From the NCBI GenBank assembly GCA_048941265.1, contig JBHLNT010000093.1:1-15888 (forward strand): a stretch of 15,888 nucleotides of DNA, in the 5' to 3' direction. Positions within the stretch are counted from its first letter, which is position 1. Each line of letters starts with the position of its first letter. The position numbers and the translations under genes are program-made. Shown one piece after another: positions 1-13,227 of this stretch. Source of the stretch: Promethearchaeota archaeon (GTDB lineage: Archaea; Asgardarchaeota; Lokiarchaeia; Sigyniarchaeales; SOKP01). A model generated the notes under the pieces. That model ran no database searches, was not told the DNA's origin, and was given only the letters and a program-made list of their open reading frames with translations.

Positions 1-921
1 CAAGAAATTGACAAATTAATAAATGAAAAGGATGAATCATGGAATAAACAAAAAAATTATCAAAAAATTATTACTGACTTAAAATCGGATCTTTCGATGG
101 AAAACTCTAAAAAGAATAATTATGAATCAAAAAAAATAATTTGTGCTGATCAAATAGAAACCTTATATGAAAGATCTAAAGATTATGGGACATTACCCCC
201 TATTACTGAAGATTTATCGGAAGAAGGATTACAATCTGATATTGCTCTTGCCAATAATAAGAAGAGAGCCTTAGAACCTGTGAACTTAAAAGCAATTGAA
301 CAATATGATACGGTAAAAGAGAGGTTTGATGAAATAGATATGCGTAGACAGACAATCCAACGCGAGAGAAAATCAATTTTAGATGCAATAGATAAGATAG
401 AACTAGAAAAGACAAGGACCTTCATGACTGCGTACCATGAGATTAACAGAGTTTTTAGTGCGGTGTTCCAGAAACTCTCTCCAGGGGGGTCAGCTAAAAT
501 GATTCTTGATAGACCTGATAAGCCGTTCGAAGGGGGTGTAAGTATCGAAGCACGTCCACGCGGTAAAAAGATCTCCTCGCTTGAGATTCTTAGTGGAGGT
601 GAAAAAACTCTAGTTGCGTTGTCATTTATTTTTGCCGTTCAAGAATTTTACCCAGCACCTTTTTATATAATGGATGAGATTGATGCAGCGCTCGATGGGC
701 CGAATGTTCATCGTGTGAGTACAGTTATCCAAGATTTCTCACATCAAGCACAATTTCTTGTAATAAGTCATAGAGAAGAGAATATTGTGAATGCTGACCG
801 CATTTATGGAGTTTCTATGCAGCAATCAGGCATTACAGATATTTTTAGTGTAGATCTAGAAGAAGAAGCAAAAAGACTTTTAGAATTAGAAGACATTCCA
901 CCCCAAGTGGAAGATAATTAA
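1..921 (+). CDS. smc: Chromosome segregation protein SMC, C-terminal part (5'-truncated by the window edge)
   Basis: Frame +1 is open from base 1 (QEIDKLINEKDESW...), so the ATG at 97 is internal. The protein has a coiled coil followed by the SMC head motifs: VNLKAIEQY, ARPRGKK, ABC signature LSGGEK, Walker B/D-loop YIMDEIDAALD and H-loop VISHR. It lies directly upstream of scpA and scpB. Confidence 0.97.
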   Translation, partial: QEIDKLINEKDESWNKQKNYQKIITDLKSDLSMENSKKNNYESKKIICADQIETLYERSKDYGTLPPITEDLSEEGLQSDIALANNKKRALEPVNLKAIEQYDTVKERFDEIDMRRQTIQRERKSILDAIDKIELEKTRTFMTAYHEINRVFSAVFQKLSPGGSAKMILDRPDKPFEGGVSIEARPRGKKISSLEILSGGEKTLVALSFIFAVQEFYPAPFYIMDEIDAALDGPNVHRVSTVIQDFSHQAQFLVISHREENIVNADRIYGVSMQQSGITDIFSVDLEEEAKRLLELEDIPPQVEDN

Positions 922-937
922 ATAAATTTCGAATAAT

Positions 938-943
938 GGTGAG
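938..943 (+). promoter_or_regulatory. Putative Shine-Dalgarno GGTGAG upstream of an ATT codon (949) in the scpA frame
   Basis: The GGTGA core typical of archaeal ribosome-binding sites ends 5 nt before ATT at 949, near the start of the open frame that begins after TGA 940-942. Confidence 0.5.
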
Positions 944-948
944 ATAGT

Positions 949-1947
949 ATTTCTGATAAAGAAGAACCAAATCAAGAAACAGATTTTAACAAATGGACAG
1001 TCAAAGATTTAAGAGAATTTTGTAATAAGAATAATATTAAAATTCCATCAAAAGCTAAAAAGAAAGATATAGTTGAGCTATTAAAAAGCGTAGTATCTAG
1101 TTCAGACTTCATAGATAGAACCAAAGAAGAAGAATTAGAAGAAGAATTAATTGCGGGTTTTGAGGAAGAGGAAGAGGAATCACCTCTTATGCATAGGGAA
1201 AAATCTGAAATAAAATTTTGGCAAAAACCGAAATATCGAGTATTATTAGATCTTGACCTCGCGAAAGATTCACAAGTTGCATTTTATGATTTATCAGCAT
1301 TAGTAGATAGGTTTTTTGATCATATGCTTCAAGAAGAGCTTATAAATTACAAAATCTCTGGAATAGCACTTAGGACAGCTGCAAATTTGCACCATTTCAA
1401 AATTTCTAGCATAATTCGTGAAGAAGAACAAATACAAAAGATGGAAGAACTCGAAAAATTAAGACAACGTCATTCAAGAGCAATTCCTAGAACTCTCCCT
1501 CAACCAATCAGTCCTAAAATGCAAATAGCAACAAAGGATGAATTATTTGAAGCTATGAGAGCTGCGATCATAGAAACGATGCAAAAAAAAGAAAAATTGA
1601 GAAGGAGAAGATTACGACAAGAAGAAGAAAAACATAAACGCCTACAAAGATTATCTCAAGCGAAATTGCCTAAAGAATTATTAAAACATATAAGTGGGAA
1701 GGAACAAACTGTTGAAGAATTACATGATAGTTGGTTTAATCGAATAAAGGCTACGATTAATATAAATAATAAAGATTCTAGTTTTTTTGATCTTTTAAAT
1801 ATTATAAAAGATGAGGAAGAAAGTTCTATTGGAAGAAAATTTGCGTTAGTTCGAATGTTTTTAGCTTTAATGTTCTTAAGCACAGGAAATAGATTAACGC
1901 TAGTCCAAGATGATGAATTTAAAGATATTTTAATAAATTTGAGATGA
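949..1947 (+). CDS. scpA: Kleisin ScpA with an N-terminal HeH/SAP-like extension (start uncertain; ORF track start is 1189)
   Basis: The N-terminal kleisin region (YDLSALVDRFFDHM...INYKISGIALRTAANLHHFK), middle motif (IATKDELFEAMRAAI) and C-terminal winged helix (LVRMFLALMFL...LTLVQDDEFKDILI) match archaeal ScpA, and the gene lies between smc and scpB. The frame is stop-free from 943 with protein-like content, but has no ATG/GTG/TTG before 1189. Confidence 0.88.
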   Translation: MSDKEEPNQETDFNKWTVKDLREFCNKNNIKIPSKAKKKDIVELLKSVVSSSDFIDRTKEEELEEELIAGFEEEEEESPLMHREKSEIKFWQKPKYRVLLDLDLAKDSQVAFYDLSALVDRFFDHMLQEELINYKISGIALRTAANLHHFKISSIIREEEQIQKMEELEKLRQRHSRAIPRTLPQPISPKMQIATKDELFEAMRAAIIETMQKKEKLRRRRLRQEEEKHKRLQRLSQAKLPKELLKHISGKEQTVEELHDSWFNRIKATININNKDSSFFDLLNIIKDEEESSIGRKFALVRMFLALMFLSTGNRLTLVQDDEFKDILINLR

Positions 1948-1971
1948 AAAATAATTAATATTAAAGTTTAT

Positions 1972-1975
1972 GGAG
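1972..1975 (+). promoter_or_regulatory. Putative Shine-Dalgarno GGAG for scpB
   Basis: GGAG lies 7 nt upstream of ATG 1983 in an otherwise AT-rich 35-nt spacer. Confidence 0.5.
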
Positions 1976-1982
1976 ATAAAAT

Positions 1983-2741
1983 ATGGATAATTCTAATGAG
2001 GAAATTAACGATCATTCTGAAAAAGAAGATAATGGAATAGTAGATGATAATAATTTTAATGAAGAACAAAAAGATGATTCTGAAGTAAATATTGAAAATA
2101 CAACTGATATGCCAGATAATATAGAAAACAATGCGATTGCTATTCCAGAAGGTGATGAAACAGATGAGGAACTAATAATAAGACAAATGCGAGATTATCA
2201 TAAAAATTTAATTGAAGCCTCTCTTTATGTTGCCGGAAGTTCATTGAGCATAGAAGAATTAAATACAAAATTGGAAATCTCTAAGAAAGAAGTTGAAGAA
2301 TTAATTAATGAACTTGCCTTCGATTATTTAGAACGCTCAACAGCTCTTGTAATTAATAGAGTTGGAGATGAGAGCTATCAGATGAGTCTTAAGACAGAAT
2401 TTATCGAAAAAGTCTCAAAATTTGCGAAAGGAGGGGCAATTGCTGAAAGATATTTAAGAACATTGACGGTTATCGCATTAAAACAGCCAATTCTTAAATC
2501 TTTAGTTATAAAATTAAGAGGCGCTGGAGCTTATGAGCATGTTAAATATCTTCTTGACAATGAATTAATTTCTGCCGTTAAAAAAGGAAGATCTCAAGAA
2601 TTAACGACTACTGATAAATATGCAGAAATGTTTGGCTTACCAAAAAATAAAGAAGAAATGAAAAGACTTATGGTTTCCCAATTAGGGCTTGATAATATAT
2701 CTGATGATGATAATAAAGAAAATAATGAAAACAGCGAATAA
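1983..2741 (+). CDS. scpB: SMC-Scp complex subunit ScpB (kite) with acidic N- and C-terminal tails
   Basis: Typical ScpB motifs are present: IEASLYVAG, YQM, LRTLTVIALKQPI...IKLRG...HVKYLL and GRS...TTDKYAEMFGL. It is the third gene of the smc-scpA-scpB cluster. Confidence 0.95.
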   Translation: MDNSNEEINDHSEKEDNGIVDDNNFNEEQKDDSEVNIENTTDMPDNIENNAIAIPEGDETDEELIIRQMRDYHKNLIEASLYVAGSSLSIEELNTKLEISKKEVEELINELAFDYLERSTALVINRVGDESYQMSLKTEFIEKVSKFAKGGAIAERYLRTLTVIALKQPILKSLVIKLRGAGAYEHVKYLLDNELISAVKKGRSQELTTTDKYAEMFGLPKNKEEMKRLMVSQLGLDNISDDDNKENNENSE

Positions 2742-2754
2742 TTAATTCCAAAAT

Positions 2755-5511
2755 TTAAGATTTAAGAACATTTATCTGTTCTTCAATTGTTTTTTTCTTA
2801 TTCTGCAATTCCTTTAGATTTTCTTCTTCTAATTTCACTAATTCTGGTGGAGCTCGCGTAGAAAATGGTCCATCTAGTTTTTTTTCAACGTTTTGAATTT
2901 GTTCTATTAGTTTTGAAAGTTGCTCTAATAATCTCTCTCTTTCTATCTTGATATTGATAATCTCTACTAATGGAAGATATACAACAACCTCCTGATGTAT
3001 AATTCTAGCTGAATTTTTCGGTATATTAGATTCATTAAATTTTAATTTATTAGGATCAATATGAGATAATAACGTTATTGCTGGAGAAGCTTTTTTAATT
3101 AAATCTTTTTTATTTCCCGTTTGAATAATCAGTGGAATTTTTAATCCTGGTTTGATATTAAAATCTTTTCTCACGCGCCTTATATCATGGATTATGTTTT
3201 TAATTAACTCAAAATCTTGTTCGATTTCCTCATCGATAAAAGAATCGTTCACTTCTGGCCAATTAGCTACAATTAAAGCTGGACCTTTCTTAATTGAATC
3301 TGGCAAACTTTGCCACAATGCTTCAGTGAGGAAAGGTATTATTGGATGTAAAAGACGCAAACAATTTTCTAAAATATATAACAAAATAGCGATAGGTGTG
3401 TTTTTATCCTGTTCTTTATCATCGTATATCCTAATTTTTGAAACCTCAATATACCAATCACAAAAATCATCCCAGATAAATGAGCGAAGTGATCTTGCAG
3501 CGTTAAGATAATCATATTCTTCATAGAATCTATTAACATTCTTCAATACTTTAGTAAAAATTGAAACAATCCATTTATCCGATATCCCTAATTTATTTTT
3601 TGGATAATCAACTGAAAAGGGAATTATTTTCTGAGCTTTGTCAAGATTTCCTAAAATATAATTTGTAGACTGCCATATCTTATTACAAAAATTTTTAGAT
3701 GCTTTAAGAGCTCCCGGACTAAGATTTAAATCTTTACTAGGAATAATATTTGAAATAAAAGTGAATCTTAGCGGATCAGCCCCGTATTGAGCAATAATAT
3801 TTAGAGGGTCATATTGATCAATATTTTCCATAGATTTACTTATTTTTTGACCGTGTTCATCTCTAATAATTCCATGAAAATATACTTTATTATAAGGTGT
3901 TCTTTTGGTTAATTCAATTCCAAGCATCATTTCTCTAGCGACCCAAAAGAAAAGAATATCATATGCAGTTTCCCTTATATCATTAGGATAGTACCTTATG
4001 TAATCTTTATTCTCTAAATTTGGCCAACCTAAGGTAGCAAAAGGCCATAATCCGGAAGAAAACCAAGTATCTAACACATCCTCATCTTGCCTTAATTTAT
4101 TATCATTACATATTGGACAGATTTTTGGTGCTTCAAATTCACAAATTTGATGGCCATTTGAACAATACCATACTGGAATTTGATGCCCCCACCATAATTG
4201 ACGACTAATACACCAGTCACGAATATCCCCCATCCACTGAAAGAATCTCAATTCTTCACGTTCAGGTATCATCATTGTTAATCCGCTTTTAACAGCATCC
4301 ATAGCTTCTCTAGCTAAGTTTCTCGTTCTTACAAACCATTGAGTGGAAATTCTAGGTTCAATAATTGTATTACATCTCTGACAATGAGCTATAGCATGTA
4401 AATATGGTTCGATCTTAGAAAGAAGTCCTTCTTTTTTTAAATCTTTAACAATCTCCTCTCTACATTCAAATCTATCCATATTTGCATATTTCCCTGAATA
4501 CTTCGGTATCATTTTACCCGTTTTATCTATGACTGTGATAAACTCTAAACTATTTTTCAAGCCTATTTCATAATCATTTGGGTCATGAGCAGGTGTAATT
4601 TTTAGGGCTCCAGTACCGAATTCAGGATCTACATATGAATCTTCAAACACAGGAATTTCTCGCCCTAAAACGGGTAAAACAGCCATGTTCCCCTTATATT
4701 TTGAATATTTAGGATGTTTTGGAGCAATAGCTACTCCCGTGTCCCCTAATAATGTTTCTGGCCTAGTAGTTGCCAATTCTATAAATTCTTTTGCTCCTTC
4801 TGCCCATTTGCCAGAAGCCCATTCTGCTTTTGGTCCTTTCCAATCTTTACTTTTTATGGGATATTTTAGATACCATAGATGACTTTCATGCTCTTCAGTT
4901 TCAGCCTCTAAATTAGAAATAGCTGATTCACACCGTCCTGGGCACCAATTTACCATATATTTTCCTCTATAAATCAAATCTTTTTTGTATAGCTGTACAA
5001 AAGCGGTTCTTACTGCTAGACTGTAATCTTCATCCATCGTAAACCTTTCTCGTGTCCAATCACATGAAGATCCCATGCCTTTTGATTGCTCTCTAATAGT
5101 TGCTTGACAACGATCTTTCCAATTCCACACTTCTTCTATAAATTTTTTTCTCCCTATCTTTTTCCTATCTATCCCTTTCTTAGCTAATTCCCTCTCCACT
5201 ACATTTTGTGTAGCTATCCCTGCATGATCAGTTCCTGGAAGGAATAATGTTTCTTTTTGTTTCATACGCTCATATCGAGTCATAAGATCCTCGATTGTTA
5301 ATACAATTGCGTGACCAAAATGAAGAACTCCTGTTACATTTGGAGGAGGAAGTGTAATACAAAAACGTGGACTATTTTCATCCACTAATCCCAATTCTAA
5401 TTGTTTTTCAGGACGGAAATAACCTTGAGATTCCCACCATGTATATATTTTTTTTTCAATTTTTTTAGGATCATGTATAGGTGGTAAATTCTTAAAGTCT
5501 ATCATATTCAA
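2755..5511 (-). CDS. valS: Valine--tRNA ligase (bacterial/eukaryotic-type architecture)
   Basis: Motifs: PPPNVTGVLHFGH (HIGH motif, 5311-5322), GTDHAGIATQ, editing domain ATTRPET and FGTGALKITPAHD, DWCISRQLWWGHQIP, DVLDTWFSS, KISKS (KMSKS motif, 3832-3846), and a C-terminal coiled-coil arm. The ORF-track start is TTG 5511; ATG 5505 is an equally plausible start. Confidence 0.98.
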   Translation of the reverse strand: MNMIDFKNLPPIHDPKKIEKKIYTWWESQGYFRPEKQLELGLVDENSPRFCITLPPPNVTGVLHFGHAIVLTIEDLMTRYERMKQKETLFLPGTDHAGIATQNVVERELAKKGIDRKKIGRKKFIEEVWNWKDRCQATIREQSKGMGSSCDWTRERFTMDEDYSLAVRTAFVQLYKKDLIYRGKYMVNWCPGRCESAISNLEAETEEHESHLWYLKYPIKSKDWKGPKAEWASGKWAEGAKEFIELATTRPETLLGDTGVAIAPKHPKYSKYKGNMAVLPVLGREIPVFEDSYVDPEFGTGALKITPAHDPNDYEIGLKNSLEFITVIDKTGKMIPKYSGKYANMDRFECREEIVKDLKKEGLLSKIEPYLHAIAHCQRCNTIIEPRISTQWFVRTRNLAREAMDAVKSGLTMMIPEREELRFFQWMGDIRDWCISRQLWWGHQIPVWYCSNGHQICEFEAPKICPICNDNKLRQDEDVLDTWFSSGLWPFATLGWPNLENKDYIRYYPNDIRETAYDILFFWVAREMMLGIELTKRTPYNKVYFHGIIRDEHGQKISKSMENIDQYDPLNIIAQYGADPLRFTFISNIIPSKDLNLSPGALKASKNFCNKIWQSTNYILGNLDKAQKIIPFSVDYPKNKLGISDKWIVSIFTKVLKNVNRFYEEYDYLNAARSLRSFIWDDFCDWYIEVSKIRIYDDKEQDKNTPIAILLYILENCLRLLHPIIPFLTEALWQSLPDSIKKGPALIVANWPEVNDSFIDEEIEQDFELIKNIIHDIRRVRKDFNIKPGLKIPLIIQTGNKKDLIKKASPAITLLSHIDPNKLKFNESNIPKNSARIIHQEVVVYLPLVEIINIKIERERLLEQLSKLIEQIQNVEKKLDGPFSTRAPPELVKLEEENLKELQNKKKTIEEQINVLKS

Positions 5512-5623
5512 CCATAGTTAATGAAGCATATCTTTTAGATTTTATTTAATTAAATATAATAATCTTGTTCAAAATGATTCCAAAATTATTCTCATCTTTC
5601 AAATACCTAAAATACTATTAAAA

Positions 5624-5725
5624 TGGACCTGGCGGGAATTGAACCCGCGGCCTCTTGAATGCGAGTCAAGCTTAAGATTGATTTATGAGGCAGAAATCAA
5701 TGATCTTCCACTGATCTACAGGCCC
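5624..5725 (-). tRNA. tRNA-Ala(CGC) with a 30-nt intron (5672-5701) at position 25/26; CCA not encoded
   Basis: The minus strand reads GGGCCTG TA GATC AGTGGAA GATC [intron] G CTTGA CTCGCAT TCAAG AGGCC GCGGG TTCAATT CCCGC CAGGTCC A. All four stems pair. G3:U70 and A73 are the Ala identity elements, the anticodon CGC is at 5663-5661, and the mature length is 72 nt. Confidence 0.95.
5672..5701 (-). other. Archaeal tRNA intron with bulge-helix-bulge splice motif
   Basis: Intron sequence ATTGATTTCTGCCTCATAAATCAATCTTAA. The central 4-bp helix AAGA/UCUU is flanked by 3-nt bulges UC^A and AA^G, with an inner helix UUGAUUU/AAAUCAA. Cutting after the second nucleotide of each bulge restores a correct cloverleaf. 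Confidence 0.9.
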
Positions 5726-5845
5726 TTTTTTAAAAAGTATATTGGTAAGGGGATCGTATCTAATTTTTTTTTTTAATTTTTTAACTATGTGAAGTAAAAT
5801 CAAAAATTAAACTTTATTAAATTAATTAAAAAATACTAAAAATAA

Positions 5846-8224
5846 TTAATAACAAGTTCTGGCAATAATTTCATCTTGGGCTGTTTTAGAGAGTTCAGTA
5901 AAGAGAACAGTATATCCTGCAATTCTTACAACTAGGCCTCGATATGCATCTGGATTTTTCTGAGCTTCGTATAATGTATCTTTACCAATTACATTAAATT
6001 GTATATGAAATCCCCCATCTGCTTGAAAAAAGGTTCGAATTAGAGAAGGAAAAATTTCTAATTTTAATGTATTTGGATGAAATGCCAAAATTAGTGAATC
6101 TCCATTGGTAATTAATCCATGATCGAGTTTTTTAACTGAATTAAGAATTGCAGTTGGACCATTTTTATCCATACCATTGGTAGGACCAACTCCGTTAGAT
6201 AATTGGACTTTAGATTTTCTTCCATCAGCTGATGCACCAGTAAAAATACCGAATGCTAAATGAAATGCTGTTGATAAGATTCCTGGATTAAATTTCCCGC
6301 CTCTATAATTTTCATGTTTTAAGATTTCATCGCAATAAAAGTTTACAACATCAACAGCAATTTGATCAACATAATCATTATCATTTCCATATTTTGGAAC
6401 TTTATTTATGAAAATTTCTCTCCATTCGCTACCTTTTCTCCCTCGATACGAGCCCCTATAATTTTTCATAAGCATTTCGACCAATTCTTCTAATGAAAGG
6501 AGCTTATCTTCAAATACAATCTTTTTTATTACAGCGAGACTATCTGCCACTGTTGCTAAACCTATTAATTGAGCGCCTGTAAAATTATAAAGAGCTCCTC
6601 CCTGAGTTACATCAAGTCCCCTCTCTAAACAATTTTCTGTAGTTGCAGACAAGAATGGTTGAGGATTTAGTTCAGCAATAGCGGCATCCAGAACATCCAT
6701 AGTCAAAACCATATTTTCAATAAAATATCTTGTTTGATCTTTAAATGCATCCCAAAGATCTTCATATGAAGTAATTTTTTTATTGCTTTTAACTCCATAA
6801 TCTACCCTTGTTACCATATCAATTCCGTTCGTTAATGCTAACTCTAAACATTTTACAATATTGATTTGATTTGCATTAGTTGACCCAAAAGATTTATATG
6901 GATGTTGGGGTTCAACACACCCAATTGGTGCATATTCTCGAGCATCTTCAAGGGTAAATCCAATTTTTACCATACTTTTAACCATTATATCATCGTTGAA
7001 TAAAGCAACACTGGCTCCTGATTTTATGGATTCACCAACTTTATATAAAAAATCATCGGGAGTCATACTATGAATTCGAATAGAAAAAGTCGGTTGGACT
7101 GTCTTCAAGTGAGTATAAGCATCTAACATAATATATGATAATTCATTTGTTGCATCTTTTCCATTGCGATCAACACCACCTATTGTTAAATTTTCCGTAA
7201 TAGGAGGTCCCTCAGCAGCAACAATTCCTTTACTAAGAACATAATTCCATAATGTCGTGAGTTTAATATAAAAACATTCAACAAGGAATTGAGCTTCCTC
7301 TTCTGAAATTTTTCCCTCATTTCTATCTTTTAAGAAATATGGATATAAAACTTGATCTAAACGTCCAACGCTTACAGCAAAACCGCCATCTTCTAAACCA
7401 CATATTAATTGATTAAAATAAACCAGCTGTAATGCTTCTTTAAATGATTTTGGTGGGTTTTCAGAAATGTTGCCGCAAATTTCAGCAATTTCATGAAGCT
7501 CTAATTGACGTTTAGAATTTACTTCGATTTCTGCTTTATCCTTAGCTAATTGTGCAAATCTTTGGATAAATTTCTTTACCGCATTACAAATAATAATAAC
7601 AGATTGTAAAAATGTACTTTTTGAAATGTCATCAGAAAATTCAATAATCTTCCTTTCTGCTTTTTTTATTAACCCATTTATTCCATATTTTAAAAGAGGT
7701 TCATGACCCGGAAGAAAATGGCCAATACCATTAGTTAATTCTGTATCAACAAGAAATACTACTTTTTCCATAAGATCCCTTAAATCCGATCCTAATTTTT
7801 TCTGAAATCTCTCTTGAACCGTATCTTCTTCAAGTTTCCAGTAGGGAATAAGGTCTTCTGCAATATATGTTTTATCCTCGTTAGACAAAAAAAGTCGTTG
7901 AACTAAGCGACTATCATAAGTGTTATAATCTTGTTCGATTGTATCAATACGAACTTCAGGATATAAAGGCGTCCCGACCAACTTCGTGGTACGATTGCCA
8001 ATAATAAATTCGTCATCCCAAATTTTAATTGTCATATTTGTTAGCAAATATTCCATCGCTTTAGCAAATCGGATAATTGGAGGGTCTCCTTTTGATGCTT
8101 TATAGGATTCCATAAATAACTTTGCTCTTTCGATGCATATTTCATGTGATTGATTGACCACTCTTTCTTTCATCTTTGAAGTGCGTTCTTTATAGTTTGA
8201 ATATGAGATGCGTTCTAATTGCAT
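5846..8224 (-). CDS. Glycyl radical enzyme (PFL2/PflD/dehydratase-like superfamily), substrate unknown
   Basis: Cys loop IGCVEP (GCVEP at 6908-6922), Gly loop VRIAGY (RIAGY at 5912-5926), plus ICIERA, GRLDQVLYPY, NLTIGG, PKYGND, ASADGR, GPTAILNS and HIQFNV. It has a single-Cys loop, so it is not a canonical CC-type PFL. Confidence 0.93.
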   Translation of the reverse strand: MQLERISYSNYKERTSKMKERVVNQSHEICIERAKLFMESYKASKGDPPIIRFAKAMEYLLTNMTIKIWDDEFIIGNRTTKLVGTPLYPEVRIDTIEQDYNTYDSRLVQRLFLSNEDKTYIAEDLIPYWKLEEDTVQERFQKKLGSDLRDLMEKVVFLVDTELTNGIGHFLPGHEPLLKYGINGLIKKAERKIIEFSDDISKSTFLQSVIIICNAVKKFIQRFAQLAKDKAEIEVNSKRQLELHEIAEICGNISENPPKSFKEALQLVYFNQLICGLEDGGFAVSVGRLDQVLYPYFLKDRNEGKISEEEAQFLVECFYIKLTTLWNYVLSKGIVAAEGPPITENLTIGGVDRNGKDATNELSYIMLDAYTHLKTVQPTFSIRIHSMTPDDFLYKVGESIKSGASVALFNDDIMVKSMVKIGFTLEDAREYAPIGCVEPQHPYKSFGSTNANQINIVKCLELALTNGIDMVTRVDYGVKSNKKITSYEDLWDAFKDQTRYFIENMVLTMDVLDAAIAELNPQPFLSATTENCLERGLDVTQGGALYNFTGAQLIGLATVADSLAVIKKIVFEDKLLSLEELVEMLMKNYRGSYRGRKGSEWREIFINKVPKYGNDNDYVDQIAVDVVNFYCDEILKHENYRGGKFNPGILSTAFHLAFGIFTGASADGRKSKVQLSNGVGPTNGMDKNGPTAILNSVKKLDHGLITNGDSLILAFHPNTLKLEIFPSLIRTFFQADGGFHIQFNVIGKDTLYEAQKNPDAYRGLVVRIAGYTVLFTELSKTAQDEIIARTCY

Positions 8225-8395
8225 ATAAATCCCTATTAAAAATTTAATTTCTATAGAATTATAATCTGGAAATTTAAATAAAAATTTTCCATCAAAATTT
8301 ATATAAAAACTTCTTAATTTTTTTATTATTTAAATCAAACTTTATTGAGTTTATAAAATCACTGGTTATATTGACCTAAATTCTTTTGATATGAA

Positions 8396-9238
8396 TTAAT
8401 TCAATACCAAAACTTCTTTAATAGTACCTCTTTTAGTCGAATCGCTATTTATTGCTCTCTTAGCATTTAACAAAACAACTTTATAATCCTTATATAAATC
8501 TAAGATAAAATTTGAGTATGAATTACTCAACAAAATCTTACATCCATGCTCATCAAGAATTTTAAACGTATTATACAGCTTTATTTGGTCATCCTTCCCA
8601 AAATTATCTTTAGTATAGCTGGTAAAATTAGCAGAGTCAGAGATAGGAACATAAGGAGGATCAAAATAAATAAAATCATCTTTCTCCGCAAAATTTAAGC
8701 ATAATTCAAATGTACCTTCTAATATATTAACATTTTTCAAAACACTGCTGATTGCTTCGAGATTTTCTTCATCACAAAATCTAGGATTTTTATATCTGCC
8801 AAATGGCACATTAAATTGCCCTTTACTATTTACTCTATATAAACCATTATAGCAACATCTATTTAAATAAATAGTTCTAGAAGCTTTTTCAACATCAGAT
8901 AATTTGTTATATGATTTGGGAGTTCTATCTAATGCTCGAATTTGATAATAGTAATTTTTTTCATTTTTATGATTTTTTAGTAATTGTATCAATTCTTTTA
9001 CATTATTTTTTATAACTTTATAACAATTTACTAATTCACTATTAATATCAATTAAAATTGCTTTTTCAGGCAATATATAGAAAAATAAAGCTCCTCCTCC
9101 TACAAAAGGTTCGATATACATGTTATAATTCTTAGGTAAATACTTTATCATCTGTGAAATTAATTGCCTCTTCCCTCCAGCCCATTTTACAAAAGGATGG
9201 GGTCTGAGATGCTGGGAATTGAAGCTCTTTTCAGCCAT
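8396..9238 (-). CDS. dam: DNA adenine methyltransferase, Dam/DpnM (D12) family, probably GATC-specific
   Basis: Motifs: FVKWAGGKRQL, YIEPFVGGGA (SAM binding), DIN, YNGLYRVNSKGQFNVPFGRY (target recognition), YFDPPY (catalytic) and LSNS. Confidence 0.93.
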   Translation of the reverse strand: MAEKSFNSQHLRPHPFVKWAGGKRQLISQMIKYLPKNYNMYIEPFVGGGALFFYILPEKAILIDINSELVNCYKVIKNNVKELIQLLKNHKNEKNYYYQIRALDRTPKSYNKLSDVEKASRTIYLNRCCYNGLYRVNSKGQFNVPFGRYKNPRFCDEENLEAISSVLKNVNILEGTFELCLNFAEKDDFIYFDPPYVPISDSANFTSYTKDNFGKDDQIKLYNTFKILDEHGCKILLSNSYSNFILDLYKDYKVVLLNAKRAINSDSTKRGTIKEVLVLN

Positions 9239-9508: not shown

Positions 9509-10471
9509 ATGGAAGATATCACGAGTAAAAGCTCTAGCGACCAAAAATTTAGAGAATTATTTAATAAACAATTGATTAAAGACGCTACGGAAGAAGAAAT
9601 TAAAATTGTTTTATCAGGACAATATGGCAAAGCTCTAGAATTATTGAGAGATGCTGAGGCAACAGGCTTATTTCCTGCTCTTGTAGGTCCACCAGGAGTT
9701 GGAAAGACAATTCTTTGCCGTTATTTTGCCAGTTTAAGAGCAAAAGAGAATAAAAATGCGAGTTTTTATTGGTTAACTATGGATGAATCAATTAGACCGG
9801 CAAATTTCATGGGTTCGTTTGACCCTGCTCTTACATTAAAGTATGGGTTCATATTGGAAGCATTTAGCCCTGGTCCATTGCTGAGAGCAATGTTAGAGGG
9901 TGGTACATTTTTAGCTAACGAGATTAATAGGGCAACAGAATATTCTCAAAACACATTATTAGAACCTTTAGAGGAGGCATCCATTGGTATACCCCATCTT
10001 GGAAGGATAAAAGCAGATCAAGAATTCTTTTTTATTTGTGCAATGAATCCGGAGGAATTATCGGGTACACACCGCTTATCTGAAGCATTAAAAGATAGAA
10101 TCAAGGTATGGATTAAATTAACATATCCTGAAAAATCAACTGAGTTGGATATAATCCGTATTAATCTACCGGAGCATTTCATGGTTGAAGAATCTGAACT
10201 TGAACTAATATATTCAATTATTAATGAAACAAGAAAAAATAAAATTGATATAGAAGTACCAGCATCAATTAGAGCTGGTATAGCAATTGCTAAACTTTTA
10301 GGTAGGAAAAGGTTTCTTGAAGAAAAGGGAGATATTAAGGACAAAAAAACCGTATATGAGTACTTATCTGATATATCTAAACATGTTTTATTAGGTAGTA
10401 TAAAACCTAAACCTGGTGTCAAAGTCGAGCACATTATCGACAATATTATCAATAAAACTTTAGGAGGATAG
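9509..10471 (+). CDS. MoxR-family AAA+ ATPase
   Basis: Walker A GPPGVGKT, the F.PGPL motif, Walker B variant FLANEINRA, QNTLLEPLEE, sensor I AMNP, LSEALKDR (arginine finger) and lid motif ASIR. It is followed directly by a VWA gene. Confidence 0.92.
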   Translation: MEDITSKSSSDQKFRELFNKQLIKDATEEEIKIVLSGQYGKALELLRDAEATGLFPALVGPPGVGKTILCRYFASLRAKENKNASFYWLTMDESIRPANFMGSFDPALTLKYGFILEAFSPGPLLRAMLEGGTFLANEINRATEYSQNTLLEPLEEASIGIPHLGRIKADQEFFFICAMNPEELSGTHRLSEALKDRIKVWIKLTYPEKSTELDIIRINLPEHFMVEESELELIYSIINETRKNKIDIEVPASIRAGIAIAKLLGRKRFLEEKGDIKDKKTVYEYLSDISKHVLLGSIKPKPGVKVEHIIDNIINKTLGG

Positions 10472-10495
10472 TCTTTTCGGAGGAAATATCTTATC

Positions 10496-12991
10496 ATGGG
10501 GGTATTCCCAGAAAATCCGTGTGAATATAGTGTAGAATTTATAAGAAGGATGAGAAATCATCCAGATATTGTTCAAATTCCCTCATCGCGGCAAGTTATG
10601 TCAATTCCCCGCTTAATAGTAGCTCGATACTATCGGAAGGGGGCAATAACTCCAAATGATTTCATAGAAGTTAGCACTGTAACATCTTATCCTGGAAATC
10701 AAGACATTGCCAAAAAAATAGCCTTTGAAATATTATTTCCTAATTACAAAAAAGATTTAGTTAAATCATTCTTTCAAGAAGATTTTAATACCGATAATAT
10801 TTTAGATGATGACTTTTTAACCCCCGAAGAAAAATCTTCCTTAGACGAATTTCAAGAATTAATAGATGAAATTGAAATGTCTAAATCCATAGATACGGAT
10901 TTTCTTCAGAAAATTGAGCAATTTATGGAAGAATTGAATCAAAAAAGGGAAGAAGAACCATTTAATTCAGCTTTAAATTTTTTTTCTGATGATGCGGAAT
11001 TATATAAAGAAAAAATATCATCTTTAGAGGAGTTACTTAACGAGGCTAAAAAGAGATTAGAACAAAAAATTAATTCTTTAGATCCTGATGACTTAAAAGC
11101 TGCTGAATCATTGAATTTAAACGATTTAATTCAAGAACAATCGAAGCGGGCATGGGAACAAATTACTAGTAAGGCGCTTAATAATCAAGACATTACACAG
11201 GATTTAAAAGAATTAATGAACTCAAATAATTTTGAAGATTTAATCCAAACATTAAAATATTTAAATGACACCAATGCAATTTCTAAAGATCAAATGCAGC
11301 AAATGAAAGATGAGCTACAAAATCAAATAAGTAACCTTGATCAATTATTTCAAGCTGCAAAAAATTTAGGAGAAACACCAAAATTCGATCCAGAAAAAGT
11401 ATTAAAACAATCCCTAGAACAATCTTCATTTGATCATAATTTTAATCTTTCAAATTCATTAGATCAATATTTTGGCACCAATTTAAGAGCTCAACTACTC
11501 GATAAATATGATCAACTCTCTCAAAATTCTCCTATGAATCTTTCACTCGAAAATTTGACTAAAAACGCGCTTGCTAATAAATCATGGAATAACTTAATAA
11601 ATAAGGCACTTGAAAACGCGATTAAAGACGCGATGAGCAAAAAAAGAAAATTTGAAGAATTTAAATCTTTAGCTCATCAATTACAGCAATTGGCAAATTC
11701 TTGTGCCAATATGCATTGCAGCCAAAAATTAGAACAAAATCTTCCCGATATAATTAAAAAATCCTTAGAATCATGTGAAAATGCAAATGAATTGAAAAAT
11801 ACTGTGGAATTTTTAAGAAACATTGGTTTAAATCCAGATAAAGAAGATATAAATCAAGTAGGAAAAAACATAGGAATGAGTGATGAAGAAATCTTTGAAT
11901 TAATAGAACCAGATTATCAATTATTAAAAAAATTGATAGATAAAAATCTCGGTGATTTTGAACGACTTAATAATTTAATGAATCAAATAAAGGACCAAAT
12001 CAATAAAGATCGAATGAAAGAATTGATCTCTAGCGCTTTGGCTTCTGAAAATCGGGACGCTTTAGGAGCTCTTGGTCATTTTAATTTGGAAGATGCCCTA
12101 AAAAGTGCTCAATTCATCGGAGGAGAAGAGGGCCAAAATAAATTAATACAATGCCTTGGGGCCGGTAGTGGTGAAAATTTACTGAAACAGTGGTTTACGC
12201 ACAGAAATAATTTATCTCCTACTGCAAAGGAAAAAGTGAAAGAACTTGCTAAAAAAATGCTTATTGACTTAGGGATTTATTATTCGCGAGCCCGGCTTGG
12301 AACAACAATTTCAGGACCAATCCCCATAAATGTTGTGCGACCATTTGCAATAGGGGATGATTTTGAAAATGTTGACCTCGAAGAGACAATAAATAACATT
12401 TTAGAAAAAGGAAAGAAAGTAGATCATATAAATTATGATGATTTTTTTGTATTTGAAACAGCTAAGGGACAGAGAAGTGCATGCTTTGAGCTCGACATTT
12501 CAGGAAGCATGACGGGAGATAAATTAGCATCAATGGCAATTTCTACAACAATGTTAGCGTATGGTTTACAGAAAGATGAACTTGGAATAACCTTCTTTGA
12601 ATCGGATACTCATGTATTAAAAGAATTAGGTGATGATAAAGATTTAGAAGAATTAGCTGATGAACTCTTGTCTGTGACTGCCAGAGGAGGTACGAGAGTT
12701 CAAAAAGCGCTCGAATGGGCAAGACGTCAGTTTAAAGAAAAATCAAGTGCTCGTGAAAAATTAAATGTACTTTTTACTGATGCTGAAATTTACGATCTCA
12801 AACAAGCAATGGAAGAATTAAGAATTTTTCGTTCCATGGGAGTTGATTTTGTTTTAGTTGTGCCGGAAACATCTTTTAATATTGAAGATGCAAAAAAAAT
12901 TGTAAAAATTGTCGGAGGACAGCTTCTCACTTTAAAAAACTGGGAAGAATTCCCTGATTTAATTTCTGAAATAATTAATTCAAAGTTTTAA
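10496..12991 (+). CDS. Large VWA-domain protein (MoxR partner): N-terminal AAA-lid-like domain, long helical middle, C-terminal VWA
   Basis: MIDAS motif DISGS (12494-12508), later GGT and LFTDAE, and a pre-VWA motif VRPFAIGDDFENVDLEET typical of MoxR-associated VWA proteins. It is 24 nt downstream of the ATPase, with GGAGG at 10479-10483. Confidence 0.9.
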   Translation: MGVFPENPCEYSVEFIRRMRNHPDIVQIPSSRQVMSIPRLIVARYYRKGAITPNDFIEVSTVTSYPGNQDIAKKIAFEILFPNYKKDLVKSFFQEDFNTDNILDDDFLTPEEKSSLDEFQELIDEIEMSKSIDTDFLQKIEQFMEELNQKREEEPFNSALNFFSDDAELYKEKISSLEELLNEAKKRLEQKINSLDPDDLKAAESLNLNDLIQEQSKRAWEQITSKALNNQDITQDLKELMNSNNFEDLIQTLKYLNDTNAISKDQMQQMKDELQNQISNLDQLFQAAKNLGETPKFDPEKVLKQSLEQSSFDHNFNLSNSLDQYFGTNLRAQLLDKYDQLSQNSPMNLSLENLTKNALANKSWNNLINKALENAIKDAMSKKRKFEEFKSLAHQLQQLANSCANMHCSQKLEQNLPDIIKKSLESCENANELKNTVEFLRNIGLNPDKEDINQVGKNIGMSDEEIFELIEPDYQLLKKLIDKNLGDFERLNNLMNQIKDQINKDRMKELISSALASENRDALGALGHFNLEDALKSAQFIGGEEGQNKLIQCLGAGSGENLLKQWFTHRNNLSPTAKEKVKELAKKMLIDLGIYYSRARLGTTISGPIPINVVRPFAIGDDFENVDLEETINNILEKGKKVDHINYDDFFVFETAKGQRSACFELDISGSMTGDKLASMAISTTMLAYGLQKDELGITFFESDTHVLKELGDDKDLEELADELLSVTARGGTRVQKALEWARRQFKEKSSAREKLNVLFTDAEIYDLKQAMEELRIFRSMGVDFVLVVPETSFNIEDAKKIVKIVGGQLLTLKNWEEFPDLISEIINSKF

Positions 12992-13227
12992 TTTTTTGGA
13001 TATAAAAGAGTGGAATAAATTGGTACTCTAAATATTTCATATTCATTATTATTATATTGAAGGTGTTTGTATCTTTTCATTAATTATATGTGCCAATAAT
13101 CCTTGGACTTATTGATCTTCAACAAAAAATTTATTTTTTTAAAAATTTTCTTAAATAACAGTATAAAACTCTGAATAATTTTTTAAACAAATTTCAAATT
13201 AAATTAATTCGAGATTTTAAAGATAAT

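Follow-up and report, generated by a model that had tools for sequence, protein, structure and literature searches.

We analysed a window of 15,888 nt (positions 1 to 15,888 of contig JBHLNT010000093.1, assembly GCA_048941265.1, Promethearchaeota archaeon) that encodes a MoxR-type AAA+ ATPase, P0001, followed by a protein whose C-terminal domain is of the von Willebrand factor A (VWA) type, P0002. The subject here is the N-terminal domain of P0002, residues 1-93 (10496..10774), whose extent was set by conservation, an AlphaFold2 (AF2) model and homology to AAA+ lids; this and the other features of the cassette given below lie on the + strand. That the N-domain is homologous to the lids of MoxR-type ATPases is well supported by profile comparison, as is its description as a lid from the helix before sensor II onward, with no P-loop core. 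We favour, with some reserve, the reading that it is an ancient, diverged copy of the MoxR ATPase lid, most likely serving as the ATPase-docking anchor of the VWA adaptor. The feature itself is confirmed as real, and is a new twist on the known MoxR-VWA chaperone pair.

The initial annotation had aligned by eye P0002 residues 9-64 (10520-10687) with residues 234-264 of the ATPase, and had proposed a stand-alone AAA+ lid homologue related to the partner's lid; its coordinates and both peptides that it quoted are correct. An N-domain profile of 116 sequences was aligned by hhalign to the ATPase family profile, and the identical register was obtained. N-domain residues 6-88 fall on ATPase residues 228-302 (score 27.9, P=7.4e-4), a matched region that we take as the ATPase's own lid, or small helical subdomain (10190..10414). 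S30 falls on S253 and R32 (codon 10589-10591) on R255 (codon 10271-10273), which is the sensor-II arginine of the ATPase. None of 120 column shuffles reached 27.9 (mean 12.2, standard deviation 2.0, maximum 19.0), and the reversed profile scored 9.3. Against the MoxR-proper paralogues of relatives the register was repeated, with R32 on the arginine of their GPR motif; this match is marginal (P=0.028, reached by 3 of 120 shuffles).

Hidden Markov model (HMM) searches in both directions agree, and with the hhalign result they bear out the proposed lid homology. When the N-domain HMM was run against the 9328 six-frame open reading frames (ORFs) of the genome, the three best non-self matches were all AAA+ lids, with E 0.068 for that of the adjacent ATPase, 0.3 for a Vps4-like ATPase in its AAA_lid_3 region and 0.56 for a second MoxR paralogue in its lid. 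The same HMM matches the lid of the upstream ATPase in 10/10 divergent Asgard loci, at 12.2-30.0 bits. In the other direction, a lid HMM from 13 ATPases was searched against a database of the 118 N-domain pieces: each of them matches at E<=10, and 99 do so at E<=0.01; the best N-domain score is 36.1 bits, and genome-wide the VWA ORF takes fifth place (E 0.79). A further lead comes from a language-model feature search with residues 1-95, in which the top clusters are all AAA_lid_8, AAA_lid_2, AAA_5 and CbbQ_C, at 0.83-0.88.

Among close orthologues, conservation in the protein is highest in the N-domain, where 52 columns are invariant across 29 Loki sequences. When its profile was searched at E<=1e-3 against 1.84 billion representative proteins, a family of 118 was obtained, mostly of 820-900 aa or fragments; all 118 matches start within the first 47 residues, and no match was found inside any ATPase of that collection. 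R32 is the sole invariant column (47/47) in a diverse alignment of 47 sequences, and S30, P29, F11, F15, R20, D55, Q69, A72 and A76 are each kept in at least 90% of them, so the SxR arginine to which attention had been drawn persists in distant homologues. Mean column conservation is 0.48-0.59 in the N-domain, 0.21-0.39 over residues 91-540 and 0.49-0.63 over residues 601-750; the N-domain is conserved as much as the VWA core and far above the middle region. Some homologues carry the precomputed Pfam family PF27098, and one PF25045; PF27098 might already cover part of the VWA protein.

The VWA protein was rightly said to have no P-loop domain: the N-domain starts at residue 1, none of the 118 representatives has such a domain upstream, and Pfam finds only VWA. 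In an AAA+ protein a P-loop alpha/beta core precedes the lid in the same polypeptide; here none does. Since the N-domain starts at residue 1, it is lid-derived but lies outside any AAA+ module.

From the diverse alignment, AF2 produced a confident N-domain model with a predicted local distance difference test (pLDDT) score of 84.8, with helices at residues 8-21, 32-48, 53-63 and 66-80, plus a short fifth. R32 opens the second long helix (32-48), the position of a sensor-II arginine, and aligns with R255. The hhalign and AF2 results improved only with the diverse alignment: on the Loki-only alignment the AF2 model had pLDDT 59 and no match in Foldseek, and a low-diversity profile (29 near-identical Loki sequences) met the ATPase profile with an hhalign probability of 0.4%, in the wrong region. 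A structural search of 48,161 representative chains with the better model placed AAA+ proteins in 18 of the 50 top rows, and in compact alignments the matched range was the lid. These rows include dynein (4ai6; Z 7.0, root-mean-square deviation (rmsd) 4.7, 89 aligned), BchI as the second-best structural neighbour (1g8p residues 268-350; Z 6.7, rmsd 3.1, 68 aligned), CbbQ2 (6l1q residues 197-272; Z 6.0, rmsd 2.9, 71 aligned), Rea1 (5jcs; Z 5.7, rmsd 4.9, 83 aligned), NorQ (9qh4; Z 5.3, rmsd 3.0, 71 aligned), seven MCM entries (Z 4.7-5.5) and ORC1 (Z 4.7).

Contact with the ATPase was predicted for a 1:1 complex of one ATPase (25-row alignment) and P0002 residues 1-100 (47-row alignment). The interaction prediction score from aligned errors (ipSAE) was 0.70 in three runs, a mark reached by 58/80 solved complexes and 2/110 mismatched pairs; controls gave 0.00, 0.00 and 0.41. 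The runs share at least 97% of their contacts, and the pLDDT of the partner is at least 79. An interaction with the ATPase, as the initial annotation had supposed, is thus predicted. The N-domain is placed next to the Walker A loop, on the large subdomain of the ATPase, with no confident contact in ATPase residues 205-320, which include its own lid. Predicted contacts on the ATPase are residues 45, 47-48, 51-52, 54, 59, 181, 195-196 and 199-203, corresponding to helix alpha0 before beta1, beta1 immediately before the Walker A loop, the residue that follows the sensor-1 Asn, and the edge of beta5. On the N-domain they are residues 27, 30, 32-33, 36, 39-40, 43-44, 47, 59, 62-66 and 69, so the conserved polar residues S30, R32, Q33, T63, S64 and Q69 are within the predicted interface.

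Results of three kinds weigh against the reading as a lid copy that anchors the adaptor. The first concern recognition of the lid. Pfam lid models have no significant match in any of the 47 N-domain members (one of the 47 matches MDN1_4th at E 0.18, taken as noise), and no lid was returned by single-sequence Pfam and PDB searches with residues 1-105 or by the diverse-alignment profile against PDB sequences. Foldseek with the good model found nothing at E<=1e-3, its top rows being bromodomains and histones with template modelling scores of ~0.3. The same 50 rows that contain the AAA+ proteins contain 18 cyclin/TFIIB folds (Z 4.7-5.9), and the Doc toxin scores Z 6.5. Structural Z values below 8 are common for helical bundles, and no N-domain match reaches 8. 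Because no row stands out, other folds tie and all Z are below 8, the fold evidence is compatible with a lid and not decisive. The tie of cyclin, TFIIB and Doc folds with lids at such Z, together with the lack of a Pfam lid match, would suit a chance likeness, in which a generic four-helix bundle has an amphipathic pattern that matches a lid. We consider this very improbable: the reciprocal HMM matches have the correct register and score as high as 30 and 36 bits, the top three genome-wide non-self matches are all AAA+ lids, and neither the 120 shuffles nor the reversed profile attain the real hhalign score.

The second kind concerns docking. When the ATPase was swapped for an unrelated protein, ipSAE was still 0.41. 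Because many solved structures contain an AAA+ core with its lid, the complex may have passed from the predictor's memory of lid packing on such cores, and may show only that the predictor treats the N-domain as lid-like. Each ATPase protomer has its own intact sensor-II Arg, within P251-G257 (PASIRAG), invariant in 25 orthologues. Finally, the cryo-EM structures of NorQD and CobST, as described, have the adaptor N-domain on the small subdomain of the ATPase (PMC13036017, 10.64898/2026.10.09.757910, 10.64898/2026.07.21.739949). It is possible, if less probable than the reading we favour, that the lid-derived domain anchors in the manner of these N-domains, at the periphery of the ring on the outer side of the ATPase's small (lid) subdomain, and that the large-subdomain interface is a predictor artefact. 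Besides these structures and the control with unrelated chain 1 (ipSAE 0.41), such an arrangement would suit a closed hexamer, which has no free lid site given the invariant R255, and a parallel in CobT, where a conserved Arg in helix alpha2 is described as holding the small-subdomain contact. Set against it are the lack of any confident contact in ATPase 205-320 and of any sequence link between the NorD or CobT N-domains and the lid-like domain in the 1.84-billion-protein, PDB or Pfam searches; moreover, NorD and CobT N-domains are described in the account of PMC9976466 as unrelated and variable.

The third kind concerns the relation of each N-domain to its own partner. Compared across systems, N-domains score a mean of 28.9 against the lid of their own ATPase (diagonal) and 32.6 against the lids of other systems (off-diagonal; permutation p=0.96), a rough comparison in that aligned lengths differ. 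There is accordingly no sign of co-evolving mimicry of the partner's lid, and we rejected that idea, the own lid being no closer than the lids of other systems. The sequence comparison fits one old duplication, and not repeated conversion or mimicry.

The N-domain could also be the vestige of a degenerate AAA+ module like that of BchD/ChlD, stripped of its alpha/beta core and now used for client binding or linker folding, without contact to the ATPase. [quoted passage not shown] The coincidence of conserved polar residues (S30, R32, Q33, T63, S64, Q69) with the predicted ATPase interface speaks against a vestige, and the invariance of the sensor-II Arg is difficult to account for unless it has a role at the nucleotide site or one related to the ATPase; we regard this alternative as quite unlikely.

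If the N-domain is, as we favour, an anchor derived from the ATPase lid, a lid copy lacking the P-loop core and keeping the sensor-II arginine R32 would hold the adaptor on the ATPase, followed by a long, poorly conserved linker and the C-terminal MIDAS-bearing VWA domain. It would sit on the ATPase large subdomain, presenting S30, R32, Q33 and the T63-Q69 loop to a face that in clade-7 AAA+ rings would normally be covered by the lid of the neighbouring protomer. In this clade the lid is described as lying over the neighbour's nucleotide, with sensor 2 acting in trans (PMC6987120). R32 may have a role at the nucleotide, and from AAA+ topology we infer that the predicted site would be the trans-lid site. 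Because every protomer keeps its sensor-II Arg, a closed ring would have no vacant lid site; the copy could therefore bind only where a pocket is uncovered, at a free protomer or at an open spiral's seam. RavA, NorQ and CobS are documented to form seamed spirals in the accounts of PMC6987120, PMC13036017 and the CobST preprints (10.64898/2026.10.09.757910, 10.64898/2026.07.21.739949). The machine as a whole would carry out ATP-driven remodelling of a client, perhaps the product of the third cassette gene, P0003.

A more specific proposal is that the lid copy is a pseudo-subunit, filling the uncovered pocket of the seam or free protomer with R32 as trans sensor-II, so that the adaptor would sense or impose the nucleotide state of one specific protomer and link that state, by way of the tether, to the MIDAS. 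This we regard as unlikely. If true, such docking would differ from the small-subdomain anchoring of NorQD and CobST, and may be linked to the unusual N-E Walker B of the ATPase.

The engagement of clade-7 AAA+ rings by VWA adaptors has been visualised only recently (NorQD and CobST, 2026), with N-domains that are described as unrelated to the motor. An adaptor bearing a copy of the motor's own lid with an invariant sensor-II arginine suggests a different docking logic, subunit mimicry at the nucleotide pocket, and residues 1-95, with R32 and S30, offer a precise handle on it. No description of a lid-only N-domain on a VWA adaptor was found in the literature, in a search that did not extend to article supplements. 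The N-domain profile matches 139 of 301 sampled Asgard genomes and 52 of the 90 of high quality, with a concentration in two families (59/68 and 57/76 genomes). The cassette, common in Asgard archaea, thus also offers a way to study a so far uncharacterised housekeeping machine in those prokaryotes that are the nearest known relatives of eukaryotes. Some Asgard genomes have two or three paralogous ATPase and lid-VWA systems.

The ATPase itself (P0001, 320 aa, 9509..10471) matches Pfam AAA_5 (7e-17) and AAA_3 (2e-12), and its best PDB sequence matches are midasin (3e-12) and 2r44. Its Walker A is GPPGVGKT (residues 60-67, 9686-9709). Its Walker B reads N137-E138 instead of D-E (9917-9922); the form h-h-h-h-N-E is found in this ATPase and the 12 other aligned members, divergent ones included (13/13), and D-E in two MoxR-proper paralogues. 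Judged from sequence, N-E may mean an altered handling of Mg or ATP.

The VWA adaptor protein P0002 (831 aa, 10496..12991) matches Pfam VWA_2 (7e-10, residues 666-763) and VWA_CoxE (8e-6). Its poorly conserved middle, for which the initial annotation had proposed a helical arm and which is bounded from the conservation profile at residues 94 to about 600-624 (10775..12367), is acidic at residues 91-180, rich overall in L, N, E, K, D, S and Q, and has no credible Pfam match. The C-terminal VWA domain, assigned by Pfam and sequence, spans 12368..12988. The DxSxS part of its MIDAS is read from the sequence as DISGS, residues 667-671 (12494-12508).

The three genes of the cassette, ATPase, VWA protein and the 787-aa P0003 (13228..15591), are on the same strand. 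The order ATPase, VWA, ~785-aa gene (an ORF of 784-811 aa) is found in every locus with enough flank, and ATPase-VWA adjacency is also kept in 10/10 divergent Asgard loci. By label, 27 of the 28 related loci are from Asgard (Promethearchaeota and allied) metagenome-assembled genomes (MAGs) and one is from a Nanopelagicaceae bacterium MAG. The ATPase and VWA ORFs are separated by a 24-nt spacer (10472..10495) with a GGAGG-like ribosome-binding site, and share a frame, with one TAG and 8 sense codons between them (10469-10495); the stop overlaps the TAGGAGG-like site. The two are in frame at 22/25 loci and out of frame at 3/25, and in some loci another in-frame stop follows. We considered whether ATPase and VWA are fused by read-through or frameshifting, and rejected this as a conserved feature because of the out-of-frame loci and extra stops; the VWA gene also has its own ATG behind GGAGG.

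P0003 has no Pfam or NCBIfam match (Pfam to E<=5). A search gives 263 homologues; none of the 120 listed has a Pfam domain, and those of them that are named are 'hypothetical protein' from Asgard MAGs. Residues ~66-85 (H-D-C ... C-I-H) have by eye the look of a SWIM-type zinc finger, on which Pfam is silent at E<=5. An AT-rich stretch of ~230 nt (12992-13227) separates the VWA stop from P0003; it is missing from a locus of 93% identity (L001), which has only ~7 nt between the two genes, and from the other loci (4-9 nt). In one locus (L100, G006:C32) a paralogue system is followed by a P0003-like gene (6.7e-34), and several divergent loci have a third gene unlike P0003. The neighbours at positions 1-9238 of the window are unrelated housekeeping genes by Pfam: an SMC C-terminus, ScpB, a class I aminoacyl-tRNA synthetase (Val/Leu/Ile type), a pyruvate formate-lyase-like glycyl-radical enzyme and a D12 N6-adenine methyltransferase. 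Many related loci have, upstream of the cassette, a ~280-aa ORF at the position of the methyltransferase gene, compared by position and size.

The initial annotation had seen in this locus a two-gene machine with a loose likeness to chelatase I/D or midasin/Rea1. The pairing of ATPase and VWA protein stands; the extent of two genes does not, the cassette of three being conserved, and the closest systems are instead NorQ-NorD and CobS-CobT. A MoxR-type AAA+ gene adjoins a VWA-protein gene, as in pairs of the NorQD, CbbQO and CobST type, and the VWA protein has the adaptor plan of such pairs: N-domain, long linker and C-terminal VWA with MIDAS. The ATPase-VWA system belongs with the MoxR-VWA adaptor pairs.

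Mg-chelatase BchI/BchD (ChlI/ChlD) is alike in the AAA+-derived N-terminus, the acidic linker and the MIDAS VWA domain. Subunit D (BchD/ChlD) keeps a whole degenerate AAA+ module, whereas only the lid is present here; all 118 representatives start with the lid and none has an upstream P-loop core. The VWA protein has at its N-terminus no AAA+ module whose alpha/beta core is homologous to that of subunit I, and for lack of this core it is not a BchD/ChlD. Midasin/Rea1 is alike in its AAA_5-type ATPase, its long acidic or poorly ordered tether and its C-terminal MIDAS domain. Midasin is, however, one chain of six tandem AAA modules, and the present system has only one such module and is encoded by separate genes; the midasin match of the ATPase is generic AAA_5 similarity, and the system is not a midasin.

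The likeness to Torsin with LAP1/LULL1 is conceptual only: in both, an ATPase active site would be completed or regulated by a catalytically dead partner of AAA+ descent that is not itself one of the ring subunits. The alpha/beta core is retained in LAP1 and LULL1, which contribute an arginine finger, whereas here there is only a lid with a sensor-II-type Arg. In the ternary MoxR-vWA conflict systems with VMAP, iSTAND or beta-propeller proteins, vWA is described as being followed by variable C-terminal effectors (PMC7159879). Going by that description they are set apart from the present system, in which VWA is C-terminal with no effector after it and P0003 has no Pfam match.

Of the adaptor pairs, CbbO shares its overall plan with the VWA protein. 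CobS-CobT cobaltochelatase is alike in having a clade-7 AAA+ ATPase and a VWA adaptor whose N-domain is described as tethered by the disordered linker of CobT; no CobN-like third subunit is found in the cassette. Another likeness is that the CobT N-domain bears, early in its helices, a conserved Arg described as key to the contact. CobT_N is reported to have beta strands (the 'M48C domain') and to bind small-subdomain helices of CobS, differing in both from what is predicted for the lid-like N-domain here. Published accounts of NorD and CobT give a common plan of an ATPase-anchored N-domain, a long unresolved linker, and a VWA domain with a finger or shaft in the pore (PMC13036017, PMC9976466, 10.64898/2026.10.09.757910, 10.64898/2026.07.21.739949). 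NorQ-NorD, which serves iron insertion into cNOR (PDB 9qh4, 9qh6, 9qh8), has as here a MoxR-type ATPase followed by an adaptor of N-domain, linker and C-terminal MIDAS VWA. NorQ lids are among the structural neighbours of the N-domain model (Z 5.3-5.7, rmsd 2.9-3.0, 71-72 aligned). The NorD N-domain contacts the ATPase, and here such a contact is predicted by the model. The two differ in how they would dock: the N-domain of NorD is ~220-240 aa, is not characterised as lid-like in the available description and binds the small subdomain, whereas the N-domain of the present adaptor is a 93-aa lid copy with a predicted seat on the large subdomain.

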